Source: a virus
Lineage: Duplodnaviria; Caudoviricetes
DNA length: 64,000 nucleotides
Virus record (IMG/VR): IMGVR_UViG_3300032321_001270
Coordinates: 64,001 to 128,000 of that record
Strand: one strand, 5' to 3'
The translations under genes were made by a program, and so were the position numbers. How positions within the stretch are numbered: position 1 is the stretch's first letter; each line of letters starts with the position of its first letter. Shown here in pieces: positions 9,717 through 30,542 of the stretch. The notes under the pieces were generated by a model that saw only the letters and a program-made list of their open reading frames with translations, was not told the origin of the DNA and made no database searches.

Positions 9717-10139
9717 TCAACCGCCTGTCGACGGTTCCGGTGTCGGCGCCGGGGCAGGGGCAGGGGCAGGGGCAGGGGCCGGTCTTGGAGGCAGAGGAAA
9801 CGGCACCGGCGCTGGAACCGAGTTGATGGTCACCGTGCCGTCAGCGTTGGTCGTAAACGTACCAACCAGTTTCAGCGTTTCGGTCGTGCAGCCGGGCTTT
9901 ACTTCGTTGAGCAGCGCGCCAAGTTTGCCGTGCATCGAGAATACTTCGGCGGCGTCTGTACCAAGCGCAGCCGAGAGTTCAGCCGGCGAGGACTTCGGAT
10001 TCTTCCAAAAGAGTTTTACGCTCTGGTCAAACGTGTTGAGCAGGCTCTGGTATGTAGCCCGGGCGTTCTGCTTGATTTGCGCAGCTGTACGGATGGCCGG
10101 GGTGATCTCGGGAACGTTGGGCTTGTCAAGAACGCTCAT
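9717..10139 (-). CDS. Hypothetical protein with a Pro-Ala repeat tail
   Basis: 140-aa ORF with GGAG upstream; C-terminal PAPAPAPAPAPAP encoded by tandem ggggca repeats. Confidence 0.75.
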   Translation of the reverse strand: MSVLDKPNVPEITPAIRTAAQIKQNARATYQSLLNTFDQSVKLFWKNPKSSPAELSAALGTDAAEVFSMHGKLGALLNEVKPGCTTETLKLVGTFTTNADGTVTINSVPAPVPFPLPPRPAPAPAPAPAPAPTPEPSTGG

Positions 10140-10202: not shown

Positions 10203-12491
10203 TTACGGCAGTACAAGCGTTCTGCCGGCTGTCGTGCGCATGAAATTGATATCTAAGAAATCTGGGCGTACCTTTACGGCACGGTACGCTAAGTTTCCGG
10301 GGATCGATACCGAAAACACGATATTCTGGTTCGGGTCAAGGTTCGTGCCGTTGTTAAATTCGACGATAGCCGGATTTTCGTAGATGAAATCAGCAACGTG
10401 GCTATACGAACCGTCGAGTTCTTTTACCAGCGTGAACCCACCTTGGTAGGGCGACGTGCCTGATGTTGAGTGTGCGTGCGCTCGGAAAATACCGCGGTTA
10501 TTAGCGAGGTCAATTTCATAGGTCACGCCGCGGGCATAATTGCCATGATCGGTCTGGTCGTCGTACAGCGTAATAATTTCGTTGCCGGGCGTAAGCGGTG
10601 TAATGTCAGCAGAATGCCAACGCGCGTCATGGTTACCAGCCGGCCCGGTGTACGGATCGTTATAGACCGTAAGCCACTTCGTATTTTGCGTGGTTGCGCC
10701 GCGGGCCACATTCTGGAACGTGCCCGTGTCAGAGCAGCACGGCACACCTTGCAGTGCCCACTTTACTTCTTTCGTTGCGTAGTCGATGCAAAACGCGCCG
10801 CCCGGGTGTCGGCAACTGATAAGCAAATCGCCAGTGACAGGGTGCACGTCGATTGAATTAGCGTGAAAATAATCGTAGTGCGGGCCAATATTGAAGTACT
10901 CGTCGCTGTGCCAATCCCACACAATGGTTTGTCCGTCGGCAGACAGTTCTTGAATATACAGTTCGTTATTGGGCATGTACGTGCCGGTGCAACCGTACGC
11001 GTACGTCATCGAGATAAAGTTGCCGCGGCGGCCTTCGGGGCCGGCGATCATGTGCGACTCGTGGCACTCCCAAATAGGCTGCGAGTTTGACGAGTCGTTT
11101 TTCATCGTGTAGTTCGTGGCCGTCATCTGATTCAGGCCAAGTTCTACGGCGTATCGAGTAGCATCCCCCCACGTGTGCAGCACCAGTTTGTTCGGCACTG
11201 TACAGTGGAGCGAAGAGCCGTTATGCCGGTCGTCGTGGGTGTACCAGACAGGCGTGCCGTTTTCGTTAAACACGATGAAGTAGTTTGCGCCATTACCTTG
11301 GGACGGGTTGTACAGATAGTAGCCGGGACGATACCCGGCGGTCTTTGTCTGCACTGTGACCATCGGCAGGTCGGTCGGGATAACCCGAATAAAATACTCC
11401 TGCGCGCCGTATGTGACGTGCAGTGCTTTATTGACGTCAATTGAACCGGTTGTGTTAGCGCCGTTGATCGTCAGGCTATAAGCGTCGGTGCCGTTTGTGT
11501 CGGAGTAAATGCAGTAGTCTTGAATCGATGGATTAAACGCCGGCATTAAACTGCCGCTGCTGCCATCAATACTGACGTCAAGCGTAGTAATTTGCGCAGA
11601 AGCCGAAACCTCAACAAACATGTCAGAGGTCAGCGGCGGTTTTGGCATCAACTGGCTGATTAGCGCCGTGGCATACCAGTAGATCGTTTTGCCCGCAGCG
11701 CCAGTCGCGTCAATGGCCAGCGTATACGGTTCAACATCGTCGTCTGCTGTAGCACGAACACTGATACCAGCCGCCACAGACCAATCGTTTTCAGCGGTGT
11801 TCTCAATGATGGGGCTGCCCACAAAAACAACACCGTCACCACCTAAACCACGTTTGACGCCGCCGCGAATTGTCCACACAGCCGTTACGTCAGTCGTTAT
11901 ATCGTAAGCCGTGACTTTGATATCAAAATTCCAGATAACACCGATTGGAACTTCAAGGCGCCTAGCAGTGGATACGCCGCTAGAATAAGAAGCTACGCCA
12001 TCCAGCGCCAGTACAGTCGCCGCGTCCGAAGTGGTTTGCCCGCGCAAGTTATAGATACTGAACTGCGCGTCGCCGGGGGTGTTAAATGCGCCGCTCGAAA
12101 TCGCCACTTGACCAAAAGAACTGGCCACCGCCTGTTTGCCGATAGCCAGAGAATTTGCAGCCGTCGCAGAAGATCCGGCGCCAGCCAGTACAGCGGCATT
12201 AGCGCCAGATACTGTGTTATCTGCACCGCCGCCAATAAAGCCGTTGAGCCCAGATACGGTATTTGTGTTGCCGCCGCCGATGAAACCGTCTGTGCCTGTT
12301 ATTTCATTGTTCGTGCCGCTGTTGATGTCAGCGCCCGTAGCGTACGCAAGCAAGTTCCACGGCGTAGTCCCGTCGCCGTACTTGACCTTGTTTGTGTCCG
12401 TTTCAAGGCACGGCTCGCCCGGCTCCAGAACCGGATTCAGTTCTGCCAGATAAGCCGCCGTGCCACGTTTAACGCGAATTTCAATAGTCAT
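10203..12491 (-). CDS. Fibre protein: Mtd_N-like N-terminus, cadherin-like segment and arylsulfotransferase-like domain
   Basis: IRVKRGTAA...NPVLEPGEPCLETDTNKVKYGDGTTPWNLLAY (Mtd_N-like); LMPAFNPSIQDY (cadherin-like); DYFHANSID, ISCRH, NHDAR, LYDDQ and YRA motifs (ASST-like). Confidence 0.75.
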   Translation of the reverse strand: MTIEIRVKRGTAAYLAELNPVLEPGEPCLETDTNKVKYGDGTTPWNLLAYATGADINSGTNNEITGTDGFIGGGNTNTVSGLNGFIGGGADNTVSGANAAVLAGAGSSATAANSLAIGKQAVASSFGQVAISSGAFNTPGDAQFSIYNLRGQTTSDAATVLALDGVASYSSGVSTARRLEVPIGVIWNFDIKVTAYDITTDVTAVWTIRGGVKRGLGGDGVVFVGSPIIENTAENDWSVAAGISVRATADDDVEPYTLAIDATGAAGKTIYWYATALISQLMPKPPLTSDMFVEVSASAQITTLDVSIDGSSGSLMPAFNPSIQDYCIYSDTNGTDAYSLTINGANTTGSIDVNKALHVTYGAQEYFIRVIPTDLPMVTVQTKTAGYRPGYYLYNPSQGNGANYFIVFNENGTPVWYTHDDRHNGSSLHCTVPNKLVLHTWGDATRYAVELGLNQMTATNYTMKNDSSNSQPIWECHESHMIAGPEGRRGNFISMTYAYGCTGTYMPNNELYIQELSADGQTIVWDWHSDEYFNIGPHYDYFHANSIDVHPVTGDLLISCRHPGGAFCIDYATKEVKWALQGVPCCSDTGTFQNVARGATTQNTKWLTVYNDPYTGPAGNHDARWHSADITPLTPGNEIITLYDDQTDHGNYARGVTYEIDLANNRGIFRAHAHSTSGTSPYQGGFTLVKELDGSYSHVADFIYENPAIVEFNNGTNLDPNQNIVFSVSIPGNLAYRAVKVRPDFLDINFMRTTAGRTLVLP

Positions 12492-12503
12492 GATAACTCA
12501 GTG

Positions 12504-15500
12504 TCAGAAGGGTGCTGTGGGCGGCGTGAAGTCGCTTGTGTAGAGCGCCTGTTTTATAATGCGAACTTCATCAATAATTACGTTAGATTCAAACCCGCCG
12601 GCTGTTGGTACGAAACCGAGGCACAAAATATACGGCCCCGGTTCTGGCGCTTGCGTGCTGGTACTTACGGCAACGCCCTTCACGTATAGCGTTGACGTGC
12701 CATTAGAGCGAACAACGGCGATGTGGGTCCACTCTCCAACGTTTGCGCCGCCGCCCTGCAATGCGCCAGAAAAACCGTTATTGCATTCAACGGGTCCGCT
12801 TGAAGCGATGCAAAGATGCAATCCACCAAAATAGCTATAGATATCATCAGAAGCGCTCAAGAACAACAAAGTGCTGTAATTAAAATTTGACTGACGGTAA
12901 GCCCAGCATTCAATGGTGAAATCGCCAGTCGAAAGGTCAGGTACGTTGCGCGTGGTTGACGCAAAACCGGTTTGATTGTTGCAGTTGTACGCCGCGGCGC
13001 CAAACATCTTGGTTGACGTATCAAATACACCCGGCGGCGTCGGGAAAGTTAAACCCGTCGGAGATGAATCGACAAGGTTTGACGGGCCGTCGCAGTGCAA
13101 GAGTAGTACCGGTAAAACCGGCGCATAAAAATTGACAAACACGGGGTAAAAATTACTTTCGTACCGCGCGGCCTGCGTCAGGCGCATGTTTGACATATAC
13201 ACGTTGGCATACATATCAAAGTCGTGCCCGTCGATTGTTTCCCAGTACGCGGGGTTTCCGCTACAACTCGGCGACTGATTCACGGAACAAGCGTTAACGC
13301 CGTCCACAAATAACGCTGTAAATTGCCCAGCTTTTCCGACCAAGGCAATATGTTGCCAACGCCCAAGTTTGACAATGTTTGCCGCTGTGCGCGCCACAAA
13401 CCCGGCCCCGTCAGCCGGCAGGCACCCGCCACTGTTTATGCTCAAACTCTTGTCACCCCACATTACAATAGTGCATGGATCTCCGCCGTCACTGCGCAGC
13501 ACAAGAAACGCAGAATCATTTGCCCCACGAGACGGGTCCACAGATTCGGTGTACAGCCAGAACTCATAAGTAAAATCTTGCGTGATGTCTGGCAAGAAAC
13601 CAGAGCCATCCATTCCGGCGTTTGAATACATGCCGACGCCCTGAGTCCCGTATAGTGCCGTGGTGTTTGGACAGCCTTGCGGCGCTGTTGTGAACGACGG
13701 CAACGAGTTGCCGGGCGCATGCCAGTTTGTAGACAGATCAGATGCGCTCGTGAAATGATTCAGGTATTTTACATCAGCGGAATACGGGTCACTGGCTGGT
13801 TCAAAACTCGGCCCGCCAAACGCTTGCGTGGGCGGCGTGAAGTTTTCGGTGTAGACCGCCTCGCCCTTGACGATGCGGAGTTCGTCGATGTAGCCGTGGA
13901 AGAACTCGCCGCTGCTGCCCTGCTGTGCGATCCACAAATCCGCGCCATTATCAGGTTGAACGGCCCACGGCCCAGAATCCGCCAAAACGCCGTCGACGTA
14001 CAGCGACATAGTTCCGTTCTGGTAGCACGCCGCAACGTGGTACCACTGATTCAAATTCAACTCAAACGGCGTCATCAATTCAGAAACGCCTCCGCTGCTA
14101 TTAGCGCTAAGATATAAATTCCTTGTCGCCGGATTACTAAAACCACACAACCACTGCCAGTTGACCCCGGTTCGGCGAGTAATAACCGTTGTGTAACTAT
14201 CTGCATACGAAAGCATATGCATCCAGAATTCAACCGTAAACGGCTCGTCGCCAGTCAAATTAAATGCGTCGTTTGATGCAATTTGTAAATAACTGTTGTT
14301 AACAAAATCAAAATACGCAATTGTCGGACCAAATTTAGTCTCGTTTGTGCTGATTTGAGCGTTGCCGCCGGCGGTTACAGTTAGCATATTTGGCGACGAA
14401 TCAATGAACTGGTTGTCGCCGTCAATGCCGTCAAAGTGCAGGAGCAATGATGTTGTTCCGCTAGACGAAACAATAGGCGGCGCGGTTACAAACTTGTCAG
14501 CAAGATACTTCTCGACGGCCGCAAGCGCCGCAACGCCCAGTTTGTGGTCGTAATGAACCACGGCGGCGATGTCACCTTGCAGCGATTCTGGGGACTGAAA
14601 TGAGCCTCCAAAACCTAAGAGAAGTTCGGCGCCGGCCATAGAGGCCATGTCAGCGTACAGCGTTTCAGAAACTTCTTCTCCGTTTATGCGCAACTTTAAC
14701 AACCCAGCAGCGTCGACTGTGTAACTGATTAATGTCCAGTCAATCGGCAGGGTTGTTGGAAAACCACCACACTCTGCAGCGTTATAATTTCCAGTGCACG
14801 ATGCGTTGTACAACTCCAACCTGCCTTGCGGTTTGTGTACATTTAGCGTTAAACCGTCGAGTTGGCTAAAGTCGGTCCCCGCCGCTGGTTGAAAACTAAT
14901 GATTCTTGCGTAATCGTTGTCGTTGGCTGTTTGCCGCACTACAACAAAACCGCTGGAGTTCTTCAAGTTGAACTGGTGGTTGACCTGCATCACGTTCGGG
15001 TCGCCGTTGAAGTGCACGGCATTCTTACCCGTCGGCGTGGCGCTGATTGCCAGTGTCGGAACAGGGGCGTAATCAGCGTTAGCGGCATTGTTGTTACTGC
15101 CGCTCATGTCACCCCAACCGAGAACCGTATCGTTGAAGGTCGTGAAATCAGAATCAGCGCCGTCCAGCCAGAGATCATTGCCTGTGATAAGTTTGGGCGT
15201 GAAGGGGCCGATAAACGGCTGGGTGGGTGGCGTGAAATCAGTGGTGTAGACAGCCGTGCCCTTGATTACTCGGAATTCGTCAATGTAACCAGTAAACCCG
15301 TCTCCCGCACCTTCTGCCGTCCCTAATGAGGCGGAGGCGCTGAGTGTGAAATCATAGGCCACATTGGTGTCTGCTATCTTTGTTCCGTCAACAAATGCTC
15401 TGACAACACCGCTCTGGCACGTGATTGCGAGATGAAACCACTGGCCTGTAGAAACGCCTAGGGCCTCAATTATAAACCAGCCGTACGGCTGCCGGCCGAT

Positions 15501-18500
15501 CATCAGTTCTCCATAATCTGAAAACACGACAAACAAAGATCCGGCGCAGGTCGCGACCTGCGGACCCAACAACGCCGGATAATTGGAGAATGTTGTGGCG
15601 TTTATCCACATTTCAATTGTGAAATCAGCGGTGCCAAAATGAAATATTTCGGGATCAAAAGACACGCGACTGGAGCCGTCAAAGTACCCGCTTGCCCCAC
15701 CAAATTTGCTTTGAGCAGTTCTAATGACTGCGTTGCCGTTGGCCGTGACTGTCAACGCGTTAGAAGATGAATCCGTGAATGTCGTGCTGCCATTCGCGCC
15801 ATCGAAATGAAGCAGCAAGTCAGCAGTAATCTCGGGCACAAATGGATTCAGGAACGCAGCAGTCGGCGGCGTGAAGTCTGCCGTATAGCGCGCGACGCCC
15901 TTGGTGATGCGGAGGTCGTCGATGTATCCGTACAGCGACCCTTGAACTGACCCGCCATCAAAAAAACCCGCGAAGGTTGGCTGACCGTCATACGGTGACG
16001 AGTCAGTGATCGCCGCGCCTACCATCGCACCGTCTATGAATAACTTCACTGCGCCATTTTCTCTAGCCGCCGCAATGTGATGCCACTCGTTTGATGTTAT
16101 GTAGTGGTCGGAAAACGAGGTGTTTGCATTTGTGCCTTCGTTATACCAGTTCAGAATATTGTTCTGGAGATAGATCGACGGCCTAAAATCTCCGGCGACC
16201 TGCCCGCCCCTCCAGTCAGCGAGAAACACAACCTGCTCTTCTTTCAAGTAGACCCACATCTCGACGGTGAAGTCGCCCGATCCGAGGCTTAAATCGCCGG
16301 AAGCGGACAGTCGACACTGCGCGCCATCATTGTAGTAAGACGATCCTCCAAACTTGCTCTCGGTCGTGCTGATGTACGCGCTGCCATTTGCAGTCACCGT
16401 GTTCTGCAGATACGAATTATCTGTAAATACCGTACTGCCATCCGCGCCGTCCATGTGCAGAAGCAGGACAACGTCTTCTGCGTACGGGTCGCCAACAGGC
16501 GCTGTATCAATAGGATCTGCAAATTCGCGTGTCGGGGGCGTAAAGTCCGCCGTATAACGCGCGACACCCTTAGTGATGCGAAGGTCGTCGATGTACAAAG
16601 TTGTTCCTGATGACGAAAACTCTGCTACATCTCCGGCTACGGAGCCTATTGATGCGTCGGTAGAGTTAGGCCAGTTTATTGAGTCAGTACTTGTGTATGA
16701 GTCATTCTGCACTCCATCCACAAACAACATGTAATCCGAACCGTTTCGGACTATGGCGAAGTGCTGCCATGAATTGAGCGGCAAATCAGTTGCAGAACCC
16801 AAGAATGGCATTTGCCAACTGCCGTCTATTTTGGCGTCTACACGAAGTTTGCCGTCCGTATACACGTAGCAATTCAGTCCTTCAGGCACATTGGCCGATC
16901 TGCCATTGCCAAAAACTCCCACTTGAGACCCGACCGACGACGCTCCGATGTAGTGCCACCATTCAATGGTGAAGTCACTTTCTCCAAAATTGAATGTTTC
17001 GGCAGGAAATTTGATAAAACTTCCGTCACCTTCAAACTTACCGCTGCCATTACCAAATTTGACAGTTGTCAAATCAATCCGCGCGCCGCCGCTGGTCGTG
17101 ACCTCGTGGTGATACTTGGAATTGTCGTAGAAGTAGGTGACAGGTGTTTCGGGCGCAGTCATGGCGCTAAGCGGGGCTGATGGAGGCGTAAAATTCGCAG
17201 TATACACCGCAAAGCCTTTCACGATGCGAAGTTCATCGATGTAGCCGTGGTATGCATCTACGCTGGCTAACTCGTGCGCTCCGCAACCAATTGTGAGTGG
17301 TTGAGCCGCGCCAAGATCTATTACGCCGACGTCTTCTTCAAAAGCGATTACGCCGTCAACGAACACTCGAATAACCGTACCCGCGCGTGTCAGCGCCACA
17401 TGCGCCCATTGCTCTAGCGGCACAGAAACATTGCCAGAATTATTCAACCAATAAAAAGAGTTGCCGGCAAGATAGAGCGCATCGCCGGCGGTGAGCCGCC
17501 ACAAAATTCCATTCGCATATGTGCCAACAGACACAACTGAATTTCTAGTGGCGGAAAACATATACGTAAACATTTCGATGGTAAAATCGCCAGTGCCAAA
17601 ACCAAATAGCGGCGATTCTTCGTATGTCAACGTAGCCACCGGATCGCCAGAGAAATAGCCGCTAGAACCGCCGAACTGATTCTGCTCTGTCGAAATTAAC
17701 GCATTAGAAGAATTTATTGGCATTAGCGCATTATTACTGCTATCTGTAAATGAATCACTGCCGTCGGCGCCGTCAAAGTGGAGTAGCAGCGCCGCGGGTA
17801 ATCCGCCGGCGCTGAACGGCGCTGTCGGCGGCGTGAAGTTATCCGTGTACAGGGCCGTGCCGTTTGTGATTCTGAGTTCGTCCACGTAGCCGTCGTTTAT
17901 CGGGCTTTGGTTGTTGCCCCAAACGCCAATTCTAAAATCAGCCGCCGCTACGGGGTCAGAAACTCCAGAGTCATTTTGCGCCTCCACTTGCCCGTTTAAA
18001 AACAGAGTGAAGACAGAACCCTGACGCACGAAAGCGATATGGTTCCAATCATTCAGTGTCACATAATTACTACCAAAAACACCGTTTGCAAGATCCCAAC
18101 CGCCGCCGCTGCTCGCCCACATACCGATTCTGCCGTCCAAGTACATCATCACGCCATATGTAAAATCGTTGGCGCCGGCGAACAAACACTGGCAACCGCC
18201 ATTCCCGCCGCCGTTGTTATATGTTGTCGGATAAAAGAAACACTCTATCGTAAAATCAGCCGGTAAATCCAATGCGCCATTTACATTTGTTACGGTCAAA
18301 TATCTGGCTGCATGAACGTTTTCATCCGACGGGAAATAGGCGCTTGTGCCGCCGAATTTGCTTTGAGTGTTGGAAAGTTGGATGCCGTCTCCGCCCGTAG
18401 CCGTCGTCGTCAGCGCATTCGCGCCACTGTCAGTAAATGTTGTGCCGCCGTTTGAGCCATCAAAGTGGAGCAGGAGCGCATCGGTTGTGACTGGGCCGGC

Positions 18501-20132
18501 GGTTGTGTTGTTCGGCGACTTGTTCATGTGAAGCAGGAGCGAAACGTTGTCGCCGTAAACATCTGTCGCAAAGTTTTCTTTGCCAAACCCGCCGTTCCAG
18601 AGCATGCCGATGTCAGTAAGACTCAGGGCGCGACTCCAAATACCAATCGAATCCAGCGCGCACGCAACGCTGTTTTGCAAACCACCCTGCTCGCCAACAC
18701 CGACTTGCAGTATGTTCGTGGTGTCAACGAGCGTGCCAGTTACATCCGCGCTATCAGCGAGCACGTTGTCTACGTACAGCCGCGCTTTGCCCGCGTCAGC
18801 ATCGAGCGACAGAACGAAGTGCCGCCACTCGTTCGCGGCAAGTGCAGGATACGCCAGCCGAAACTGACCGCTTGTTGTACGGACATAGGACACCAGTTCG
18901 TTAGTATTTCCACTTTCATCGCCCCAACCAAGTACAAACTGGCCGTCTGGTGCGTTGCCGTCCCAGTTCTGCATGATCTCGCCGAACGTGCCGGTCGTTG
19001 TGGGCAACTTGAACCAGCCTGAGATAGTGAAACTGGGCGTGAGTTTCAGCGTGGGGTGCGACAGGTAATTTGCGCCGCCAGTAAAATTACCGGCATTTCC
19101 AAGCACGCCGGGCACGCTGGCAACAGTGCCGGTTTGCACAAGCGTATTTCCACTGCCACTGATATCTAAACGGCTGCCGTTCTCCTCGTTCATCGGCCAG
19201 AACGCCGTCATGCCGTTGAGAAGCGGGTGCACGACCTGCGTAATTCCCCAGCGGCCCAGCAGATACTCTTCAACCTGCGCCCGCTCTGTGTCGGTAAGTA
19301 CTCGGCTATACAGCACGATTTCGGCAATATCGCCGTTAAACGCGCCAGCAGCATAATCAGCGCGCGACGAACCCAGTGCAAACTGCGTGAACGTACCAAC
19401 CGTGTCTTGCTCTGTGGTTTGAGCCGTCAGGCCATTCAGGCTCGTGGTGAACGACGCCGAATCACAAGCAACCATGTACACAGCCGGCGCGAACGTCGTA
19501 ACTTCTTGCGGCGAATAATAGTTGTCACCAACCCGCGCAGCCACGTGCGTCGCGTCTTGCATAATGCACGGAATAAACCCGCTAGCGTTAGTGTCTGTCG
19601 GGTGGTTCAACGCCGTAAATACACGCCCAGCTGTACTTGTGCCGCGAGGGTTTAATACCACGAACAGCGTGAAGCCGGGCTCTAAATCAAAACTACTGAG
19701 CATGGCGTCATTCGTGCCGTCAAACGTAACGACGCTCAAATCATTGATCGTGTTGCTGGCTGCCGGGCGGTTGGCTTTGAGCGACTGGAAGAAGTGCCGC
19801 TTGTGAATCGACTTGTCATCCCACTGCGCCACTTTGTTATTAACCAGCGACACAAAGTCGGGATCTGCGGCGTCGAGCCACAGCGCCAAACCACTCAGAT
19901 TCGGCGGCGTGAACTCAGGTGTCGTGCCAGCAGACGCGCGGGCTAGTTCGCCACCGTCCACCAAATTAACGTCGGGGTTCGCGTACGGCAGGTCATTCCA
20001 CGCAGTAACGCCGTCGCCAAGTTTAAACTTTCCGGTGTCAATTTCGTGAATGGGTTCTCCGCGCAGCAACACCGGATTGACGGCGTGCAGGTCGGCGGCG
20101 GTACCACGGCGTAATTGAATTTTTGCTGACAT
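12504..20132 (-). CDS. Giant multi-LamG fibre/adhesin (2542 aa) with an Mtd_N-like N-terminus
   Basis: IQLRRGTAA...GEPIHEIDTGKFKLGDGVTAWNDLPY, then about 11 LamG/ConA-like modules (LLLHFDG, DFTIE, YIDELRI, YTxxFTPPTxPF). Confidence 0.9.
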   Translation of the reverse strand: MSAKIQLRRGTAADLHAVNPVLLRGEPIHEIDTGKFKLGDGVTAWNDLPYANPDVNLVDGGELARASAGTTPEFTPPNLSGLALWLDAADPDFVSLVNNKVAQWDDKSIHKRHFFQSLKANRPAASNTINDLSVVTFDGTNDAMLSSFDLEPGFTLFVVLNPRGTSTAGRVFTALNHPTDTNASGFIPCIMQDATHVAARVGDNYYSPQEVTTFAPAVYMVACDSASFTTSLNGLTAQTTEQDTVGTFTQFALGSSRADYAAGAFNGDIAEIVLYSRVLTDTERAQVEEYLLGRWGITQVVHPLLNGMTAFWPMNEENGSRLDISGSGNTLVQTGTVASVPGVLGNAGNFTGGANYLSHPTLKLTPSFTISGWFKLPTTTGTFGEIMQNWDGNAPDGQFVLGWGDESGNTNELVSYVRTTSGQFRLAYPALAANEWRHFVLSLDADAGKARLYVDNVLADSADVTGTLVDTTNILQVGVGEQGGLQNSVACALDSIGIWSRALSLTDIGMLWNGGFGKENFATDVYGDNVSLLLHMNKSPNNTTAGPVTTDALLLHFDGSNGGTTFTDSGANALTTTATGGDGIQLSNTQSKFGGTSAYFPSDENVHAARYLTVTNVNGALDLPADFTIECFFYPTTYNNGGGNGGCQCLFAGANDFTYGVMMYLDGRIGMWASSGGGWDLANGVFGSNYVTLNDWNHIAFVRQGSVFTLFLNGQVEAQNDSGVSDPVAAADFRIGVWGNNQSPINDGYVDELRITNGTALYTDNFTPPTAPFSAGGLPAALLLHFDGADGSDSFTDSSNNALMPINSSNALISTEQNQFGGSSGYFSGDPVATLTYEESPLFGFGTGDFTIEMFTYMFSATRNSVVSVGTYANGILWRLTAGDALYLAGNSFYWLNNSGNVSVPLEQWAHVALTRAGTVIRVFVDGVIAFEEDVGVIDLGAAQPLTIGCGAHELASVDAYHGYIDELRIVKGFAVYTANFTPPSAPLSAMTAPETPVTYFYDNSKYHHEVTTSGGARIDLTTVKFGNGSGKFEGDGSFIKFPAETFNFGESDFTIEWWHYIGASSVGSQVGVFGNGRSANVPEGLNCYVYTDGKLRVDAKIDGSWQMPFLGSATDLPLNSWQHFAIVRNGSDYMLFVDGVQNDSYTSTDSINWPNSTDASIGSVAGDVAEFSSSGTTLYIDDLRITKGVARYTADFTPPTREFADPIDTAPVGDPYAEDVVLLLHMDGADGSTVFTDNSYLQNTVTANGSAYISTTESKFGGSSYYNDGAQCRLSASGDLSLGSGDFTVEMWVYLKEEQVVFLADWRGGQVAGDFRPSIYLQNNILNWYNEGTNANTSFSDHYITSNEWHHIAAARENGAVKLFIDGAMVGAAITDSSPYDGQPTFAGFFDGGSVQGSLYGYIDDLRITKGVARYTADFTPPTAAFLNPFVPEITADLLLHFDGANGSTTFTDSSSNALTVTANGNAVIRTAQSKFGGASGYFDGSSRVSFDPEIFHFGTADFTIEMWINATTFSNYPALLGPQVATCAGSLFVVFSDYGELMIGRQPYGWFIIEALGVSTGQWFHLAITCQSGVVRAFVDGTKIADTNVAYDFTLSASASLGTAEGAGDGFTGYIDEFRVIKGTAVYTTDFTPPTQPFIGPFTPKLITGNDLWLDGADSDFTTFNDTVLGWGDMSGSNNNAANADYAPVPTLAISATPTGKNAVHFNGDPNVMQVNHQFNLKNSSGFVVVRQTANDNDYARIISFQPAAGTDFSQLDGLTLNVHKPQGRLELYNASCTGNYNAAECGGFPTTLPIDWTLISYTVDAAGLLKLRINGEEVSETLYADMASMAGAELLLGFGGSFQSPESLQGDIAAVVHYDHKLGVAALAAVEKYLADKFVTAPPIVSSSGTTSLLLHFDGIDGDNQFIDSSPNMLTVTAGGNAQISTNETKFGPTIAYFDFVNNSYLQIASNDAFNLTGDEPFTVEFWMHMLSYADSYTTVITRRTGVNWQWLCGFSNPATRNLYLSANSSGGVSELMTPFELNLNQWYHVAACYQNGTMSLYVDGVLADSGPWAVQPDNGADLWIAQQGSSGEFFHGYIDELRIVKGEAVYTENFTPPTQAFGGPSFEPASDPYSADVKYLNHFTSASDLSTNWHAPGNSLPSFTTAPQGCPNTTALYGTQGVGMYSNAGMDGSGFLPDITQDFTYEFWLYTESVDPSRGANDSAFLVLRSDGGDPCTIVMWGDKSLSINSGGCLPADGAGFVARTAANIVKLGRWQHIALVGKAGQFTALFVDGVNACSVNQSPSCSGNPAYWETIDGHDFDMYANVYMSNMRLTQAARYESNFYPVFVNFYAPVLPVLLLHCDGPSNLVDSSPTGLTFPTPPGVFDTSTKMFGAAAYNCNNQTGFASTTRNVPDLSTGDFTIECWAYRQSNFNYSTLLFLSASDDIYSYFGGLHLCIASSGPVECNNGFSGALQGGGANVGEWTHIAVVRSNGTSTLYVKGVAVSTSTQAPEPGPYILCLGFVPTAGGFESNVIIDEVRIIKQALYTSDFTPPTAPF

Positions 20133-20150: not shown

Positions 20151-22778
20151 TCAGTTGACGATAGTGGGAGTTAAACCGGCAGTGGAGCGCAAATAGTCGG
20201 CGTCAAAAAACTCTTTTTCAACTTTGAGTATCCTATACAAATCACCCGGAAAATCTACTGCAAAGACGGGGTTAACACCGGGACTAGCGCCGTCACCGGC
20301 ATCTGCGTATTCAACAAGTTGTGGGTGCTGGCCGTTGAAATCAATCACGTGGCTATACGCGCCGTTTTTGTGCAACACGACGTGATAACTACCAAGATAA
20401 CCAGACGGACCGACAGTTGAAAAAATACTGGAACGATGAACGGCTTTATTTTGCGCCAAATCAATTTCGTACATGACACCGCGAGCGTAGGGCGCGCCAT
20501 TTGGAAAATAATTTTGCGCTTTCACCGCCGTAATTGTGCCATTTGCCGTAACGCTATTTGCCGTCGGAAGAGTGTAGGTAAACGTGTTGTTGTCGATTTT
20601 TGTGACCAGAAAAACGCCGTTAAAAGCGCTTTGATTAGCACCGCTGATTTGAACATATGATCCGGTCGTAAACCCGTGGGCGGTCGCAACACCAGTGACA
20701 GTCGTGCCACTTTGAATAAGCGATGTCACAGTTTTCAACGAAATTTGTGAGGCAGCGCCGGCGAAAAAGTTTGTCTGATTATCGAATATTGTGATGACCT
20801 GATTGCCGGGTGTCAGCGGATCTACATGCGGACACCAACGCGCGTGGTGCTGCCCGCAAGTGCCGATGTATTGAAAATTTGCGTGCGTAGGTTCTGAATC
20901 AAGTGTCAGGTATTGCGTGTCCGCTGTAGTTGTTGGGTCAGCGACCGCGGCGAGCGTGACTGACGTTGTTGACGGCGGACCCTGAATCACCCATTTGACC
21001 GCTTTTGTCGTGCCGTCAATGCACATCAAAGCAGAGCAGTTACGCATGCTGCATAACACGTCACCAGTAACTGGGTGCACATCTGCCGAGTTCATATGAA
21101 AAAACGACGAAACCTGAGTGGCAGCCGTCTGATTGAAGTAATTACCGGTCCACCAATCCCACGCAACTTGTCCGGTTGTCGGGGTCTGTTCTTGGATATA
21201 AATACCGTATGCTTTGTCGGTAATCTGTTGTGATCCAGCCGCAGGGGTCGTCGGGAAGGCAACTGTAAGAACGTTGCCGCGGCGGTTAGGCGGGCCGGAG
21301 AGTTGCAACAGTTCGTGCTGCTGCCAGTCAATAATTGGACTTGTGTATGTCGTGCCGTTCTTGGTCGTAGGCAGAAACGAGTAACCACGCGACAATGCCG
21401 CGCTGGCGGTTAAATTGATAACATAACGTTGACCAGATGTACCGTTACGGCGGCTAATGACAACCGTGTTTCGGTCGTTGCCCGGATGATTGATCTGCGG
21501 CAGGCCGGCTTCTTGGCTGTACCAAAACGGCAGACCGTTTTCGTCATAAATGACGTTGTAGTTTGCCGCGTTGATGTCGCGCCGCGATGTGGTCAGGTAA
21601 TAGCCCGGAATGTAGTCCGTCGTTGGCTGCGTCGTAATCGTACCCAGCGGCATGTCCGATGGCAGCAGCCGGATGTAGTAGGCCGAAGAACCAAACGCCA
21701 CTCGAATAATTTTTCCAACAGGCGCGCTATCTGTAATAGCCACGCCATTGACCGTCAGTGTGTACGTGACCGCGTTGCCGAGCGTCGCGGAACTTGTCAG
21801 CACGCCGTAATCGTGAATGTTGGTATTGAACGCGGGAAACAATGCGCCGGTCGAGCCTGCGACAGAGATTGCCAGCGACGCTACCGGCGCGAACGTTGAT
21901 ACGTTGATAAACGACGCGGGATCAATCGGCATCGCTGCGATCGGCGGCAACGAATAAGCAGCGCCGCCACCGTTAAATAATCTTGCGGCCTCGGCGGCTG
22001 TAAGTGCGCGGTCCCAAATACCGGCGCAATCAAAACTCACATTTACTGCGGGATTGAAAGACCCAAACGTTACAACGTCGGATTCGATAGCCGTCAGCGT
22101 GTCTGTCAAACCAGTTGCGGTCGCGTTTAATACGCCGTTTATGTAGATCTTTGCGGCAGCGGCGTTGCTACCGATTGTCTCTCGCACAAGCGTGATGTGC
22201 GTCCACGCGTCAACCGGAATAGCCGCCGCGCTCGTGGCTGGCGACGAGCTGGCTGTTGTTTGTTCAGTCCAACTCAAAGTGCGATTTGAATTTATTTGGA
22301 CGTAACCTGTTTCATTTAGCACACCGAACGGCCCAAACGAAAGAATCGTTGTTTCGACCTCGGGCGCAGCATAGATTTTCAACCAAAACGCAATTGTGCG
22401 TCGCGTAGAAAAAGAATGCGGCGCGTATAAAAAATTAGCATGCGATAACGTCAGTCCGGTGTTTTGAACGCTAGGTGTTGCCGTCGTGGCCGAAACAGGA
22501 ACAAAGAGCGGATGTGAGTTGCCAGATACGTCGGGCACATTACCGACAGTCTGATCAAACAGCCAAAACGCATGAAGACCATTAAGCAGGCTGTCATACA
22601 CAATTTCGCCGCCGTCGACACTGGCGGCTTGCGTTAGCTCAACCACAGTGCCGTCGGCTTTACGTGTAAAAAGTTTGCCGTCCGCGGTATTAACAGCCAA
22701 CTCACCGGCAGACAAATTATCGGCGGCAGGAACAGCGCCAGTTACATCGCTACGCTTATGCTTGATGATATTTGTCAT
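20151..22778 (-). CDS. Fibre protein: phage fibre N-terminus, LamG, cadherin-like segment and arylsulfotransferase-like domain
   Basis: IKHKRS...GELAVNTADGKLF N-terminus; LamG; LFPAFNTNIHDY; FFHMNSAD, CSMRN, QHHAR, IFDNQ and LYR motifs. Confidence 0.75.
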   Translation of the reverse strand: MTNIIKHKRSDVTGAVPAADNLSAGELAVNTADGKLFTRKADGTVVELTQAASVDGGEIVYDSLLNGLHAFWLFDQTVGNVPDVSGNSHPLFVPVSATTATPSVQNTGLTLSHANFLYAPHSFSTRRTIAFWLKIYAAPEVETTILSFGPFGVLNETGYVQINSNRTLSWTEQTTASSSPATSAAAIPVDAWTHITLVRETIGSNAAAAKIYINGVLNATATGLTDTLTAIESDVVTFGSFNPAVNVSFDCAGIWDRALTAAEAARLFNGGGAAYSLPPIAAMPIDPASFINVSTFAPVASLAISVAGSTGALFPAFNTNIHDYGVLTSSATLGNAVTYTLTVNGVAITDSAPVGKIIRVAFGSSAYYIRLLPSDMPLGTITTQPTTDYIPGYYLTTSRRDINAANYNVIYDENGLPFWYSQEAGLPQINHPGNDRNTVVISRRNGTSGQRYVINLTASAALSRGYSFLPTTKNGTTYTSPIIDWQQHELLQLSGPPNRRGNVLTVAFPTTPAAGSQQITDKAYGIYIQEQTPTTGQVAWDWWTGNYFNQTAATQVSSFFHMNSADVHPVTGDVLCSMRNCSALMCIDGTTKAVKWVIQGPPSTTSVTLAAVADPTTTADTQYLTLDSEPTHANFQYIGTCGQHHARWCPHVDPLTPGNQVITIFDNQTNFFAGAASQISLKTVTSLIQSGTTVTGVATAHGFTTGSYVQISGANQSAFNGVFLVTKIDNNTFTYTLPTANSVTANGTITAVKAQNYFPNGAPYARGVMYEIDLAQNKAVHRSSIFSTVGPSGYLGSYHVVLHKNGAYSHVIDFNGQHPQLVEYADAGDGASPGVNPVFAVDFPGDLYRILKVEKEFFDADYLRSTAGLTPTIVN

Positions 22779-22792
22779 CTTTTACCCTGTGA

Positions 22793-24742
22793 TTAGTATG
22801 CGCCGCCGTCCAGAACAGACGATGTGTATAAAACAGTGCCGCCGGCACCAAGCGCAATTGCTGCGCCATCGGCCCCGCTAAACGCAAGCGTGTTGTTCGC
22901 GGTAAGTGTTTTACCGTTTACAATCGTGAGCGTTGCGCTCGTAGCCGGTTGTGTGAGCGTGACTTTGTTGATAGACGTCGCCGTAGCGGCGCCAATTGTT
23001 ACGATGCTCGTGGATCCCGCAGCTGGGGCAGCGCCCACACTGGCCGCGGTCAGGGTCACAGCCCCTGTTTGTCCGTTTACGCTGCTTATGATATTTGAAG
23101 CCGGACTTCCCGCAGCGCCAGTCGCGCCTTGAGGGCCGGTAGCTCCTGTTGCACCGTCGCTGCCGGCGGGTCCAGCAAAACCGCCCGGTCCGGTTGCTCC
23201 GCTCACGCCAACCGGACCTGTGGCGCCCGTAACTCCAACAGGACCAGTAGCGCCAACAGGGCCAGAAGCACCAGTCACACCAGTGGCGCCTGTAGAACCG
23301 GAAGTTCCATTTGTACCCGCCGGGCCAGTTGCGCCAACAGGGCCAGAAGCACCAGTCACACCAGTGGCGCCAGTAACGCCCTGTGCGCCGCTGATACCAG
23401 TAGCACCCTGTATGCCTGTCGCGCCTGTGACACCAACAGGCCCAGTAGCGCCAGTAATACCGATTGAACCAGTAGCACCGGTTGAGCCTTGTATGCCTGT
23501 CGCGCCTGTGACACCAACAGGCCCAGTAGCGCCGGTAATACCGATCGCGCCGGTTGCACCTGTTACGCCGGTGATTCCACGTAAACCAGTAGCACCAGTG
23601 ATACCGCTCGCGCCCTGCGGGCCACGAATAGGCCCGACGTTTACCCACGCGGTGCCTGTCCACACAACACCGTCGCCAGACAAGCCATCGGGCGCGCCGG
23701 CTGGAATTGGCGTACTTAGTAGCCACATGTCGCCGATAGACGGGCTGAGCGATGGCGGCCAAGAATAAACAGTGCCTTTGATAGTTACGCCGGACCCTGC
23801 GTCACCTTTAGGGCCGGTTGGACCAGTGATACCTGTTGCGCCCTGAATGCCGGTAGAACCAACTACGCCGGTCGCGCCGGTTACGCCGACAGGACCGGTT
23901 GCGCCGGTGATGCCGCGTACGCCAGTCGCGCCTGTAATGCCATCCAAACCAGTAGCGCCAGTTGGGCCGTCGGCGCCTGTAGGGCCGGTTACGCCAGCCG
24001 CGCCCGTCGCCCCCGTTACGCCCCTTAAACCTGTTGGACCAGCTATACCGGTTGCGCCAGAAATACCAATTGGGCCGGATGGGCCTGTCGGTCCGGTCGG
24101 TCCGTTGACGCCGGCAGAACCAGCCGGGCCTGTCGCGCCTGTTACACCAATAGAGCCGGCAGCGCCACTAACACCAGTAGCACCCTGTATACCTGTGGCC
24201 CCGGTTATACCTATTGCGCCGGTAGGACCGGCAATACCGGTCGCGCCCGTCGTACCGACACCAGTAGCGCCGGTTACACCAGTCAAACCGCGTAAACCCG
24301 TTGCACCAATTACTCCGGTGGCGCCAGTCGCGCCCGTAGTGCCCGCGGCGCCAGTGGGACCATTAATGCCGGCCTCGCCAGCGGGGCCTGTCGCACCAGT
24401 GGCGCCGACAACGCCTGTCGCACCCAGCGGACCAGCGACACCTTGATAGCCGGTCGCACCGAGCAAACCAGACTGACCAGCCGGCCCCTGCGGACCAGTT
24501 GCGCCGGTGGGACCAACCACGCCAGTAGCGCCGGTTACGCCTGTCGCGCCGCGCAATCCTGTTGCACCGGTTGCGCCGGAGGCGCCGTCAACGCCAGTGG
24601 GACCACTTACGCCAAGAAGCGCACCAACAGTAGTGCGCTTTGTAACAAGGTTATTTGGATTCTGCGTATCAACGATCGGGATAATGTCGTTGAGCGCCGG
24701 TGTCTGCTTTTCAGGCAACGACGAGATTTTTTTATTTGCCAT
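22793..24742 (-). CDS. Collagen-like fibre protein, paralog of 6634..8784
   Basis: GXT triplets; KKISSLP N-terminus; the same central WPP...W..VG interruption. Start chosen by alignment to the paralog (the track starts at 24751). Confidence 0.9.
23250..23371. repeat. 41-nt exact direct repeat at 81-nt period within the collagen gene
   Basis: gcgccaacagggccagaagcaccagtcacaccagtggcgcc at 23250-23290 and 23331-23371. Confidence 0.85.
23409..23545. repeat. Near-exact direct repeat of about 56 nt at 81-nt period within the collagen gene
   Basis: tgtatgcctgtcgcgcctgtgacaccaacaggcccagtagcgcc(a/g)gtaataccgat at about 23409 and about 23490. Confidence 0.8.
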
Positions 24743-24756
24743 AGCGCGCACCTATT

Positions 24757-27565: not shown

Positions 27566-28609
27566 TTAAACTAGTCTCAGTATTGTCCGCCACCCCAATT
27601 CAAATGATTTACTACGTGTAGACAAGTTGTAATTCACTCGTTTGTTGAGGTTGTCGATGTGGCCGGGCTCAGCAATCATCGTTTGCAGTACAGTCACCAA
27701 TTTTTCATAGTCTGGCGCGGCGTGTGGGACGCCGTTATCGTCATAATCAACGCGTGTTTTTACAAGCACGCCATTTGCGTCTTGATACACGAAATCGATT
27801 TGTGGGGATAGAGCAAAAGACAAGACTGGCGTGCCGCAGCTAATCGATGTGAGGCTGCATAACCCGTAGTTGTCGCACTCTGCCGGAAATAACGTCAGAT
27901 CGTGCGCCGTGTACATCGCCGGGCGTTTAGATAACTGAACGTTGCGCACAAGTTTGACCCGCCCGTGTGTTTTGCGCCCAAGCGTTTGAAAAAACTTGGC
28001 AATAGACGGCGCAAACCGGCTAGACGTAATAGCCACGGTCAGCTGCGCGTCCGGCATTCGCTCAAGCAAGTAACCGAGCAAACCCAAAAACTGGCTGTGG
28101 GCGCAGCGGGCATTCCGGTCAAACCACGGCAAAAATATCTTTATCTGCCGGCTGTTGATTGCTTTCGTTTTTTTAATTGCCGGCAAACCGACGTCAAATG
28201 GGATAAACGTGACATTTTTCAGTTTGTATATTTTGGCAAACAACTCGCGCGCTTCGGCGTTCATGGCAATTACGTGATCCGCCCTGTTCATAACTTTTTT
28301 GAACGGGCGCTCAAGTTCTTGCCACATCGGCACAATAATCGTCCGAACGCCGACGCGCTTGGTGTAGTTAAGCGTGTCTAGTTTGGGAGGGTGCGTCCAG
28401 ATAATGATTTGGCAAGTTTTTGCCCATTGCGTAAATGAGCATTTCTTTTTGTGCACCACGCTACGGTCGTATTCTGTTTTCAACTTGGCCGGCTGTGTGT
28501 TTGAATACAGCGTGCAGTCAGCGCCCTGAGTGCGTAAAAACCCAGCAAGACGCAGCGCAAAATACGCTTCGTCGCAGTGCGCATAATGTGTATAGATGCC
28601 GATACGCAT
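27566..28609 (-). CDS. GT-B fold (GT4-like) glycosyltransferase homolog
   Basis: MRIGIY N-terminus; Y..HDLTLFPAECDNYGL.SL.SISCGTPV matches the GT4 C-terminal pattern; starts just after the portal stop codon. Confidence 0.7.
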   Translation of the reverse strand: MRIGIYTHYAHCDEAYFALRLAGFLRTQGADCTLYSNTQPAKLKTEYDRSVVHKKKCSFTQWAKTCQIIIWTHPPKLDTLNYTKRVGVRTIIVPMWQELERPFKKVMNRADHVIAMNAEARELFAKIYKLKNVTFIPFDVGLPAIKKTKAINSRQIKIFLPWFDRNARCAHSQFLGLLGYLLERMPDAQLTVAITSSRFAPSIAKFFQTLGRKTHGRVKLVRNVQLSKRPAMYTAHDLTLFPAECDNYGLCSLTSISCGTPVLSFALSPQIDFVYQDANGVLVKTRVDYDDNGVPHAAPDYEKLVTVLQTMIAEPGHIDNLNKRVNYNLSTRSKSFELGWRTILRLV

Positions 28610-28610
28610 A

Positions 28611-30542
28611 CTACTGAGCAGGCGGAGCCCCTTGCGGTTGTCCTTGCCCAAATTGCTGCGCCATCATCATTGCGCCACCCTGAGACCGCGCCTGCTGACG
28701 AATATCGTCGATGATGCTCGTAACCAATGCGTGCATCGTGGCGTCAGAGCGCTTTAGCTTAATCAGTTCAGAATCCTTTACAGACTCGGGCATAGACAGC
28801 AACTGGTTGGCTATAAGCTGGGCCTGTTGCTGTAGGTCTTCGGGCGTTCGCGGCACATTTGGCGCGTTCTGTCGCTGCGATAAGAACTGGTCGACAGGAC
28901 TCGGCATCTGACCGGGGACGCCACCAGCGGGCGCGCCGCCCTGCGCCGGCGCCGGCATACCGGTGGCCCCAGCGCCGGTATTACCGACGCCCGCTGTCAT
29001 GTCCGGCGATTGACTCATGTCTTTCATTTGCTGCGCCTGCTGCATCTCAGCCTGCATGCGCTCTTGCTCTTCCGCGTAGATCTTTTCCTCTTCAAGCATC
29101 TGCTTGATTTCGTCTTTGTAATCAAGCCCGACACTGGCAAGCCCAGTGCTCTTGCTGATCTGTTGACCCTGCATAAGCTGCAACTTCGCCATCTGGCGAT
29201 TGAGGTCGTCAGCATGCGTGACACGGACAAGTTTCGCGTTAACCGGCTCCCACGACATGACTCGGGAAAGCGACGATGCAAGTTCGTTTAAGAACAAGTT
29301 CATGTTGTGCGGCAAATGGCTCCAGTTCGCCTCAAATAGGCGTAACGCTGCCGGGGCTGCTTGCAGCGTCAGCGTGCCGTTAAACAGTTCCACTGGCATG
29401 CCGATGCATTTCAGCAACGTTTCAAGACCCTGATCCAGTAACTCGCGCGGGGCAAGCTGCTGCGCGTCGCCGCCCAGCGCCTGATAATTGACCGGAAACG
29501 GCAAAACATTCCAGCGCGCCGGATCGGTGCGGCGTGCACGAATCATGGCATTAACGCGCGCTGTAAAGCTGGATAAATTAATCGTGTGCACCGGGTCGGA
29601 AGACTGCCCGTCACCGCCGCGTGGCGCCGGCGTAATCACGCGGAACGGGATAACATAATCCAGCGCTACTGCTTCGTTGTAACGCTGTAGAATCTGGTAG
29701 TACCAAGCCTGCCGGAAGTTTGCGAGGATGCGAGAAATACCCCAGCCGCGATTACGCATGCCGGCCAGCGCATCTTCGCGCAGATGAAAAACGACGCCCT
29801 TATCAAACATCAAATTCTTGCCATCTTTGATTGCCTGAATAACTTCCCAGCTCGCGCGCTCAAGATGGTGAAGATGACCTTGCTTGATAAGCGTCCGATA
29901 ATCTTCAGGGATCTTCCACACATACGAGCACTCGCCGGTATACGGATCCCACAGCAGATCAATCTCGTGCGGGCTCCAACGTTTAACCGAGATGTGCCCG
30001 GTGTCACCACTGCGGCGGTCGATGTGCTTCCACGGGCCGACATATTTGCAGTTCGGACACGTAGCGTGAAACTGAAAGTTCTGCCATGAAAACGCGCAAG
30101 CGTCAGAGTTGTGCACGCGGTCAAGCGGCATCTCAAGCGCGCACTTCGGGCAGAAGAGGTAGCGGCGAAACGGGATAATAAGGCTGGTAAAAGAATTGCC
30201 GTAGGTCATGTAATCCATGCCAACGGTTTTCAGCACGTTCTTAATACTGAGCGTTTCAGATAAAAACGTCTGATACTTTTCTTTCTCTTCCCGACCAGTC
30301 TTGTTTTCGCCGATGTCTTGAATTTCGACGTCTGTAATAAAGTACGAGACAACGCGGTCAATGGCCTGCCGGTAGGGGCCATTCGCGTTCATGATGTATT
30401 CAGACCAGCGCAGCGCCGTCTGGATGCTCTCGGGCATCGACAGGCTGGCTACGTCGCAAAACGGGTCGGGAAATCGCTCGTCGGCCTGAACGCCGCGGCC
30501 GAGCGAGTTGTACCCCATAGAAGCTGCAGGTAATAGCGTCAC
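28611..30542 (-). CDS. Probable portal protein
   Basis: 643 aa; typical layout (YRQAIDRVVSYF, W.P..I, GISRI, low-complexity Q/P/M-rich C-terminus); GTG with GAGG. Assignment is by recalled similarity only. Confidence 0.55.
   Translation of the reverse strand: MTLLPAASMGYNSLGRGVQADERFPDPFCDVASLSMPESIQTALRWSEYIMNANGPYRQAIDRVVSYFITDVEIQDIGENKTGREEKEKYQTFLSETLSIKNVLKTVGMDYMTYGNSFTSLIIPFRRYLFCPKCALEMPLDRVHNSDACAFSWQNFQFHATCPNCKYVGPWKHIDRRSGDTGHISVKRWSPHEIDLLWDPYTGECSYVWKIPEDYRTLIKQGHLHHLERASWEVIQAIKDGKNLMFDKGVVFHLREDALAGMRNRGWGISRILANFRQAWYYQILQRYNEAVALDYVIPFRVITPAPRGGDGQSSDPVHTINLSSFTARVNAMIRARRTDPARWNVLPFPVNYQALGGDAQQLAPRELLDQGLETLLKCIGMPVELFNGTLTLQAAPAALRLFEANWSHLPHNMNLFLNELASSLSRVMSWEPVNAKLVRVTHADDLNRQMAKLQLMQGQQISKSTGLASVGLDYKDEIKQMLEEEKIYAEEQERMQAEMQQAQQMKDMSQSPDMTAGVGNTGAGATGMPAPAQGGAPAGGVPGQMPSPVDQFLSQRQNAPNVPRTPEDLQQQAQLIANQLLSMPESVKDSELIKLKRSDATMHALVTSIIDDIRQQARSQGGAMMMAQQFGQGQPQGAPPAQ

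Follow-up and report, generated by a model that had tools for sequence, protein, structure and literature searches.

A predicted fibre protein of a 205-kb tailed phage with an arylsulfate sulfotransferase-type module at its distal end

A 762-residue protein encoded by a jumbo phage carries at its C-terminus a module that, on the combined evidence of sequence, profile and fold, almost certainly belongs to the PAPS-independent arylsulfate sulfotransferase (ASST) superfamily. Judging from its other domains and its gene neighbourhood, the protein itself is very probably a virion fibre. The explanation that best accounts for the data as a whole, and to which we give an even chance of being correct, is that of a virion-borne ASST tip that recognises a component of the host envelope and modifies it by way of a sulfo-histidine at H621.

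The window analysed, 64,000 nucleotides in length, spans bases 64001-128000 of an IMG/VR virus record of 205,188 bp that is rated complete. It contains genes for a DNA polymerase, a primase, helicases, an SbcC-like protein and a UvsX-like recombinase, and the source is a jumbo tailed phage of 205 kb. The features discussed below are listed in Table 1. The ASST fibre gene, whose reading frame is uninterrupted over 762 codons, lies within a run of fibre genes on a single strand and is separated from the giant fibre gene by a gap of only 12 nt. Past the small conserved ORF on its other side come a second collagen-like fibre and then two LamG proteins. A promoter and terminator scan around the ASST fibre gene gave no signal above background.

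Table 1. Window positions of the ASST fibre gene, of its domains and motifs, and of neighbouring genes.
Feature	Residues	Window positions	Strand	Remarks
Collagen-like fibre		22793-24751		First in the fibre gene run
Paralogous second ASST fibre	875 aa	20151..22778	(-)	T4 gp37-like N-terminus, LamG, ASST module with ~80-aa insert
Giant fibre	2542 aa	12504-20132		Mtd_N and at least 9 LamG modules; upstream of the ASST fibre gene
ASST fibre gene	762 aa (P0001)	10203..12491	(-)	Predicted fibre protein with distal ASST module; ORF list and translation
Mtd_N-type fibre anchor	1-52	12336..12491	(-)	Pfam PF18454, PHROG, tblastn
Left-handed β-roll	53-142	12066..12335	(-)	Resembles YadA/UspA1-type heads of trimeric autotransporter adhesins
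β-Sandwich shaft domain	143-285	11637..12065	(-)	Tailspike-like
β-Sandwich at the position of the ASST N-terminal domain	286-387	11331..11636	(-)	Superposition on E. coli ASST
ASST-type β-propeller, predicted catalytic domain	388-762	10206..11330	(-)	Conserved C-terminal helix at its end
WECHE motif, H477	474-478	11058..11072	(-)	Profile-to-PDB alignment
FHANS motif, H543 and N545	542-546	10854..10868	(-)	Profile-to-PDB alignment
SCRH motif, R561	559-562	10806..10817	(-)	Profile-to-PDB alignment
NHDAR motif, H621	620-624	10620..10634	(-)	Profile-to-PDB alignment
Small conserved ORF	140 aa	9717..10139	(-)	Directly downstream of the ASST fibre gene

The arrangement of giant LamG fibre, ASST fibre and small ORF is repeated in related viral contigs. 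Indeed, at least six of them keep the ASST gene at the same place in the fibre cluster, and the gene order of the window recurs in contigs L003-L007 and L020-L022. Homologues of the 140-residue ORF follow the ASST fibre gene in L003, L004 and L019-L022, the copies in L003 and L004 being 58-59% identical, and in these last two contigs the small ORF is followed by a collagen-like fibre homologous to that of the window. The ORF, which matches no Pfam or PHROG family, is from its position only a candidate fibre assembly factor or adaptor. Only two ASST modules are present in the whole genome, the second being that of the paralogous fibre. The paralogue matches the Pfam families Laminin_G_3, PF05935 and PF14269, is 35% identical to the 762-residue protein across residues 286-762 of the latter, and retains the His, His-x-Asn, Arg and His motifs. 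The two paralogues were already neighbours before the relatives diverged and have been retained together since, and one relative carries three tandem ASST fibre genes.

The Mtd_N-like fibre anchor proposed in the original prediction is borne out by a match of residues 5-43 to the Pfam family Mtd_N (PF18454), with an E-value of 2.3e-10 and a score of 40.6 bits against a curated cut-off of 26.3. Tail fibre, tail spike and minor tail families of PHROGs match residues 2-66; PHROGs matches are confined to the first ~140 residues of the protein, and nearly all are to tail-fibre, tail-spike, minor-tail or virion structural families. In tblastn searches of cultured phages, this N-terminus was also carried by structural proteins of T4-like cyanophages, SGNH hydrolases of Cellulophaga phages and minor tail proteins of Arthrobacter phages, and a search of the PDB located it on a prophage hyaluronidase. 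Given that it occurs on both enzymes and structural proteins of phages, the anchor represents a known route for hanging enzymes on virions.

Two fibre domains that the original prediction had omitted, the β-roll and the first β-sandwich, lie between the anchor and the ASST module. A profile of the full-length family matches the head of the trimeric adhesin UspA1 over approximately residues 53-142 (E 1.6e-18), and a phmmer search of the PDB with the whole protein gave matches to the anchor and the β-roll only. As the β-roll is homologous to trimeric adhesin heads, the two domains are probably a short trimeric shaft. The complete architecture is shared by ~28 full-length homologues from metagenomes, retrieved from an index of 5.8 billion proteins.

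With respect to the C-terminal module, both ASST families of Pfam match above their curated cut-offs, namely Arylsulfotrans (PF05935) at residues 536-664 with 34.2 bits against 24.2, and Arylsulfotran_2 (PF14269) with 28.9 bits against 27. The precomputed domains of ~25 homologues are consistent with this family assignment; an NCBIfam search of the 762-residue protein gave no match. A HMMER search with residues 290-762 retrieved 341 cluster representatives at E <= 1e-3, 51 of which lie at E <= 1e-30. In the PDB, ASST was reached with a profile built from 74 modules and not by single-sequence phmmer. The profile matches the Streptomyces sulfotransferase Cpz4 (9KF4, 9KF6) with an E-value of 1e-31 and E. 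coli ASST (3ELQ) with an E-value of 5e-15.

The AlphaFold2 model of residues 286-762, calculated from the 74-module alignment, has a mean pLDDT of 95.1 and a pTM of 0.93. A Foldseek search with this model places only ASST and Cpz4 entries at E ~1e-14, the next-best entries being generic propellers at E 1e-8, and the modelled catalytic β-propeller superposes better on solved ASSTs than on other propellers. The superposition with E. coli ASST aligns 361 residues, from residue 1 of the model and residue 13 of the chain onward; identity to the solved enzymes in the structural alignment is only 16-17%. All ten of the nearest clusters in the ESM Atlas are bacterial ASST families. Several of these are fused to type IX secretion tails, carbohydrate-binding modules, Ig domains or dockerins, which indicates that extracellular display of the ASST module is common in bacteria.

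One element of the original prediction had to be revised. Residues 286-387, read there as a cadherin-like linker, correspond to a β-sandwich that coincides with the N-terminal domain of E. coli ASST in the superposition. The segment also aligns, from residue 1, with an ESM Atlas cluster carrying Arylsulfotran_N (PF17425), and the sandwich accompanies the propeller in most relatives; the Pfam model for PF17425 gave no match at these residues. The cadherin label was rejected, as Pfam yielded no cadherin-type family for the segment at E-values up to 1. At ~477 residues versus 571 for the E. coli enzyme, the ASST module is compact.

The named ASST active site is composed of His252, His356, Asn358, Arg374 and His436 (PMC13426309; bioRxiv 10.64898/2026.10.08.757629). 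The motifs WECHE, FHANS, SCRH and NHDAR, which had been claimed to supply the equivalent residues, are all present in the order originally given, and the correspondence was reproduced by the profile-to-PDB alignment: H477 with His252, H543 with His356, N545 with Asn358, R561 with Arg374 and H621 with His436. Two checks bear out the numbering of the alignment: the cysteines of the known disulfide are placed at 418 and 424, and the chain of the H436N mutant (4P04) shows an asparagine in the H621 column. In the HMM alignment, the column of Thr501 in E. coli ASST is occupied by F686, with T687 adjacent. The equivalent residue in Salmonella St_ASST_5 is a valine (bioRxiv 10.64898/2026.10.08.757629), and thus Thr501 is not family-defining. 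In the solved ASSTs that have been compared, including Cpz4, three histidines are positioned at the centre of the propeller (bioRxiv 10.64898/2026.10.08.757629), and the superposition taken together with the literature suggests that the five catalytic residues of the phage module would cluster there in three dimensions as well.

The five positions are invariant in all 24 full-length orthologues, which are 38-72% identical to the 762-residue protein and in which 99 of the 762 positions are invariant overall. If positions are assumed to be independent, the chance that all five would be invariant is ~4e-5. Among the 74 wider relatives, H477, H543, N545 and H621 are each kept in 73 and R561 in 72, such that the full His-His-Asn-Arg-His set is found in 71 while in the other three between one and three of these residues have been lost. 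Since relatives can evidently lose catalytic residues, it is informative that the fibre lineage has kept them. On the basis of these conserved residues, it is reasonably likely that the ASST module is catalytically active.

In a tblastn search, none of 50,697 GenBank phage genomes matched the ASST module at E <= 0.1, PHROGs holds no family that matches it, and BFVD returned generic propellers only, the best with an E-value of 2e-8 and a TM-score of no more than 0.38. The cellular relatives encountered in a scan of genome contigs were distant only, from Ilumatobacter and Bryobacterales, with identities of 26-29%, and pointed to no particular host. The module also occurs in giant proteins of up to 3468 residues containing LamG and collagen repeats, and at the N-terminus of a 1027-residue protein of a 151-kb virus. 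An unrooted maximum-likelihood tree of the 74 modules is divided into two deep clades with support of 100/100. The clade of 27 modules derives mostly from proteins of ~400-900 residues, and its two members with database names are a Polyangiales aryl-sulfate sulfotransferase and an 'arylsulfotransferase ASST'. The clade of 47 modules comprises multi-domain, fibre-like proteins, and within it the Mtd_N fibres form a single clade (100/98). Full-text literature searches that paired ASST or its Pfam families with phages, tails or virions gave no paper tying ASST to phage fibres. Enzyme-tipped fibres are already known; the ASST family has not previously been tied to virions in the sources searched. 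It is possible, if doubtful, that a large undescribed clade of ASST modules, which share phage fibres with LamG and collagen modules, carries out covalent sulfo-histidine chemistry on the host envelope and so constitutes a new class of receptor-modifying enzymes on virions.

ASSTs, which reside in the periplasm or are secreted, function without a nucleotide cofactor and follow a ping-pong mechanism, in which His436 first takes the sulfuryl group from the donor and then passes it to an acceptor hydroxyl (PMC13426309; bioRxiv 10.64898/2026.10.08.757629). In the absence of an acceptor, hydrolysis by ASTs is slow or low (bioRxiv 10.64898/2026.10.08.757629). Because no cofactor is needed, ASST chemistry can run on a virion outside the cell. 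In the mechanism proposed here, the Mtd_N-type anchor would fix a side fibre to the tail of the 205-kb phage, the β-roll and β-sandwich would form its shaft, and the complete two-domain ASST module would lie at the far end. This tip would be a working cofactor-free enzyme, and hence able to act outside the cell. A component of the host envelope that bears or accepts a sulfate ester would dock into the central pocket of the propeller, and the sulfuryl group would be moved via a covalent sulfo-histidine on H621, aided by H477, H543, N545 and R561, as in E. coli ASST. The phage might thereby gain both recognition and chemical modification of the receptor layer, much as is the case with esterase, deacetylase and sialidase tips. 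Sulfuryl transfer on a host envelope component is put forward tentatively, by analogy with the known enzymes, and at somewhat less than an even chance.

The nature of the substrate deserves separate consideration. In published work, ASTs have used aryl sulfates alone as donors, and alkyl sulfates were inactive; sugar hydroxyls are the acceptors preferred by Cpz4, the closest solved relative; and most ASTs, after more than 40 years, are still without a known natural substrate (PMC13426309). Of the original interpretation, an ASST domain with an intact site fused to fibre domains in a conserved fibre cluster stands, and the sulfated glycans or sulfolipids suggested as its substrates are doubtful given that only aryl sulfates serve as donors. 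For the same reason, the stripping of sulfate from sulfated glycans is chemically doubtful. The preference of Cpz4 favours sugar hydroxyls as acceptors, and by this analogy they appear better supported than sulfated glycans or sulfolipids as substrates. To sulfate a sugar hydroxyl as Cpz4 does, the fibre would need an external aryl sulfate. To our knowledge, aryl sulfates are not a recognised component of bacterial surfaces. Three further observations weigh against a virion-borne ASST tip. First, the phage has no encoded donor supply in the form of a PAPS-dependent sulfotransferase, sulfatase or APS kinase, a search of its genome for Sulfotransfer_1, Sulfotransfer_3, sulfatase and APS kinase having found none. 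Second, E. coli ASST is a dimer, whereas the fibre is expected to be a trimer. Third, no residue of the module is clearly equivalent to Thr501 of E. coli ASST.

The problem of the aryl-sulfate donor would vanish if the module were a receptor-binding lectin, in which the former active site pocket only grips an anionic group such as a sulfate, phosphate or carboxylate without turnover. The distal end of a fibre is the usual place for binding domains, propellers are common binding modules, with many phage examples in BFVD, and a pure binder would also be expected to conserve sulfate-coordinating residues. We nevertheless regard a lectin as unlikely. The nucleophilic histidine and both helper histidines, which binding alone rarely requires, are invariant in the 24 orthologues and in the paralogue. 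In addition, mean pairwise identity is 0.74 for the anchor, the most conserved domain, 0.47 for the β-roll, 0.42 for the shaft sandwich and 0.50-0.52 for the ASST module. The tip is thus not the fastest-evolving part of the protein and varies less than the shaft, unlike classical receptor-binding tips, a pattern that fits a conserved activity.

A second alternative, quite unlikely in our estimation, is that a different chemistry is performed on an ASST-like fold, either the hydrolysis or transfer of another ester (phosphoryl or acyl) on a surface polymer, or the action of a sugar-sulfate sulfatase. The sulfuryl-coordinating residues (the equivalents of Asn358 and Arg374) and all three histidines are kept, and no member of the family is known to have a different chemistry. 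These points are set against the near-complete lack of known natural substrates for ASTs, the separation of the fibre-type modules into their own deep clade apart from the stand-alone bacterial proteins, the low identity to the solved enzymes noted above, and the low hydrolysis by ASTs when no acceptor is present.

It is highly improbable that the tip acts instead on the surroundings of the virion, on dissolved phenolic sulfates or on a sulfated matrix such as algal or biofilm slime, so as to aid sticking or movement. Aryl sulfates would seem to be environmental compounds rather than known parts of the envelope, and the many LamG and collagen fibre modules of the phage could serve adhesion, but the benefit to the virion is not evident, and the long-kept side-by-side paralogues and the one three-copy tandem look like diversification of host recognition. 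Finally, a non-virion protein, either a soluble late enzyme released at lysis or the remnant of a captured bacterial gene, is the least probable reading of all, for although the phage is uncultured and the cultured phage genomes searched are without the module, the protein contains an Mtd_N anchor, an adhesin-type β-roll and a tailspike-like sandwich, and its gene lies immediately behind that of the giant fibre in a cluster position conserved among the related contigs.

Known phage fibre tips are glycosidases, lyases, esterases or peptidases, and enzyme-tipped fibres set the reach of a phage's host range. With a virion-borne ASST tip, which would be a sulfuryl transferase that needs no cofactor, this repertoire would gain a new chemistry. 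If the proposal is true, sulfate-bearing or sulfatable structures of the envelope would be indicated as phage receptors in environmental bacteria. Were the wider clade of fibre modules to carry out such chemistry on host envelopes, an entire branch of the ASST superfamily would have cell-surface polymers, and not small phenols, as its long-sought natural substrates. The clade of fibre-fixed ASST modules provides a concrete biological setting in which to seek a natural AST substrate. The module is compact and its fold is predicted with high confidence, and it may serve as a biocatalyst.

Among enzymes of the same type, Cpz4 from the caprazamycin biosynthetic pathway of Streptomyces sp. MK730-62F2 (9KF4, 9KF6) is a soluble AST-type protein of 472 residues without fibre domains. 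The phage module is only 16-17% identical to it, and the donor pathway genes of Cpz4 are missing from the phage. AssT from E. coli CFT073 (3ELQ, 3ETS, 3ETT, 4P04-07) is a periplasmic homodimer of 571-residue subunits that has much longer loops and a disulfide between Cys418 and Cys424, and its substrates are small phenols. No description of a covalent sulfo-histidine transferase on a virion was found in the literature searched. With regard to phage proteins, the SGNH-esterase fibres of Cellulophaga phages and the streptococcal prophage hyaluronidase HylP (6X3M) share an Mtd_N-like N-terminus with the ASST fibre. The K1F endosialidase is a six-bladed sialidase propeller. The tips of the K1F, Cellulophaga and HylP proteins are glycosidases, lyases or esterases, whereas that of the ASST fibre is a predicted transferase. 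The N-terminal Mtd_N domain is likewise common to the ASST fibre and to Mtd of Bordetella phage BPP-1, the tip of which is a C-type lectin varied by a retroelement rather than an ASST module. In enzyme-tipped fibres and tailspikes, an anchor at the N-terminus is followed by a trimeric shaft and, at the far end, by an enzyme that acts on the host surface, and the predicted ASST fibre would follow the same logic.

The 762-aa fibre protein P0001, which bears an arylsulfate sulfotransferase (ASST) module, is not the only fibre of its kind in the window. A paralogue of 875 residues has an N-terminus resembling the T4 long-tail-fibre distal subunit gp37; next come a LamG domain and then an ASST module in which the catalytic motifs are all retained. 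This second module is characterized by an insert of ∼80 residues flanked by DNQ and ARG motifs. Both paralogues also occur together in the related viral contigs L020 and L022. The giant fibre of the window combines nine Laminin_G_3 matches with the same Mtd_N anchor as that observed in P0001. Because anchor types are common to several fibres of this phage, the sequences suggest that its adsorption apparatus could be branched or composed of multiple fibres. The phage and its relative L020 each have a glycosyltransferase-like gene and a thymidylate or thymidine kinase gene within a few kb of the fibre cluster.

In relatives, the ASST fibre gene is followed by a homologue of the small Pro-Ala-repeat ORF of the window. 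The identity of this ORF to the copies in the related contigs L003 and L004 is 58-59%, which exceeds that of the fibre itself. No match to it was found in Pfam or PHROG, and its product may be a candidate fibre chaperone or adaptor. The C-terminal tail of P0001, with a short predicted helix, continues past the point where the alignment with E. coli ASST stops. Its identity of 0.65 is higher than the conservation of the propeller, and a key arginine is retained in >90% of the 74 relatives in the wider alignment. The tail may function in oligomerization or docking.

Features of the phage window and of related contigs
Feature	Location	Strand	Length or extent
Small ORF, C-terminal Pro-Ala repeat	window 9717-10139	-	140 aa
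P0001 C-terminal tail	window 10206-10286		aa 736-762 (~27 residues)
Giant fibre, Mtd_N and Laminin_G_3	window 12504-20132	-	2542 aa
Second ASST fibre	window 20151-22778	-	875 aa
Glycosyltransferase-like and thymidylate or thymidine kinase genes	window 27566-28651	-	
Same, relative	L020:18801-19943		
Three tandem ASST fibre genes	L019:4814-11864		805, 775, 771 aa
ASST-LamG protein	L008:5995-9078		1027 aa (151-kb virus)

The three tandem genes of contig L019 lie after a giant fibre gene, and the trio looks like a cassette of diversified putative enzyme tips. Some metagenomic relatives, namely P0038 and P0043, carry two ASST modules per chain, accompanied in one of them by a bacterial surface Ig-like domain. 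In the L008 protein the ASST module is N-terminal and precedes LamG, whereas in the 875-aa paralogue the order is reversed.
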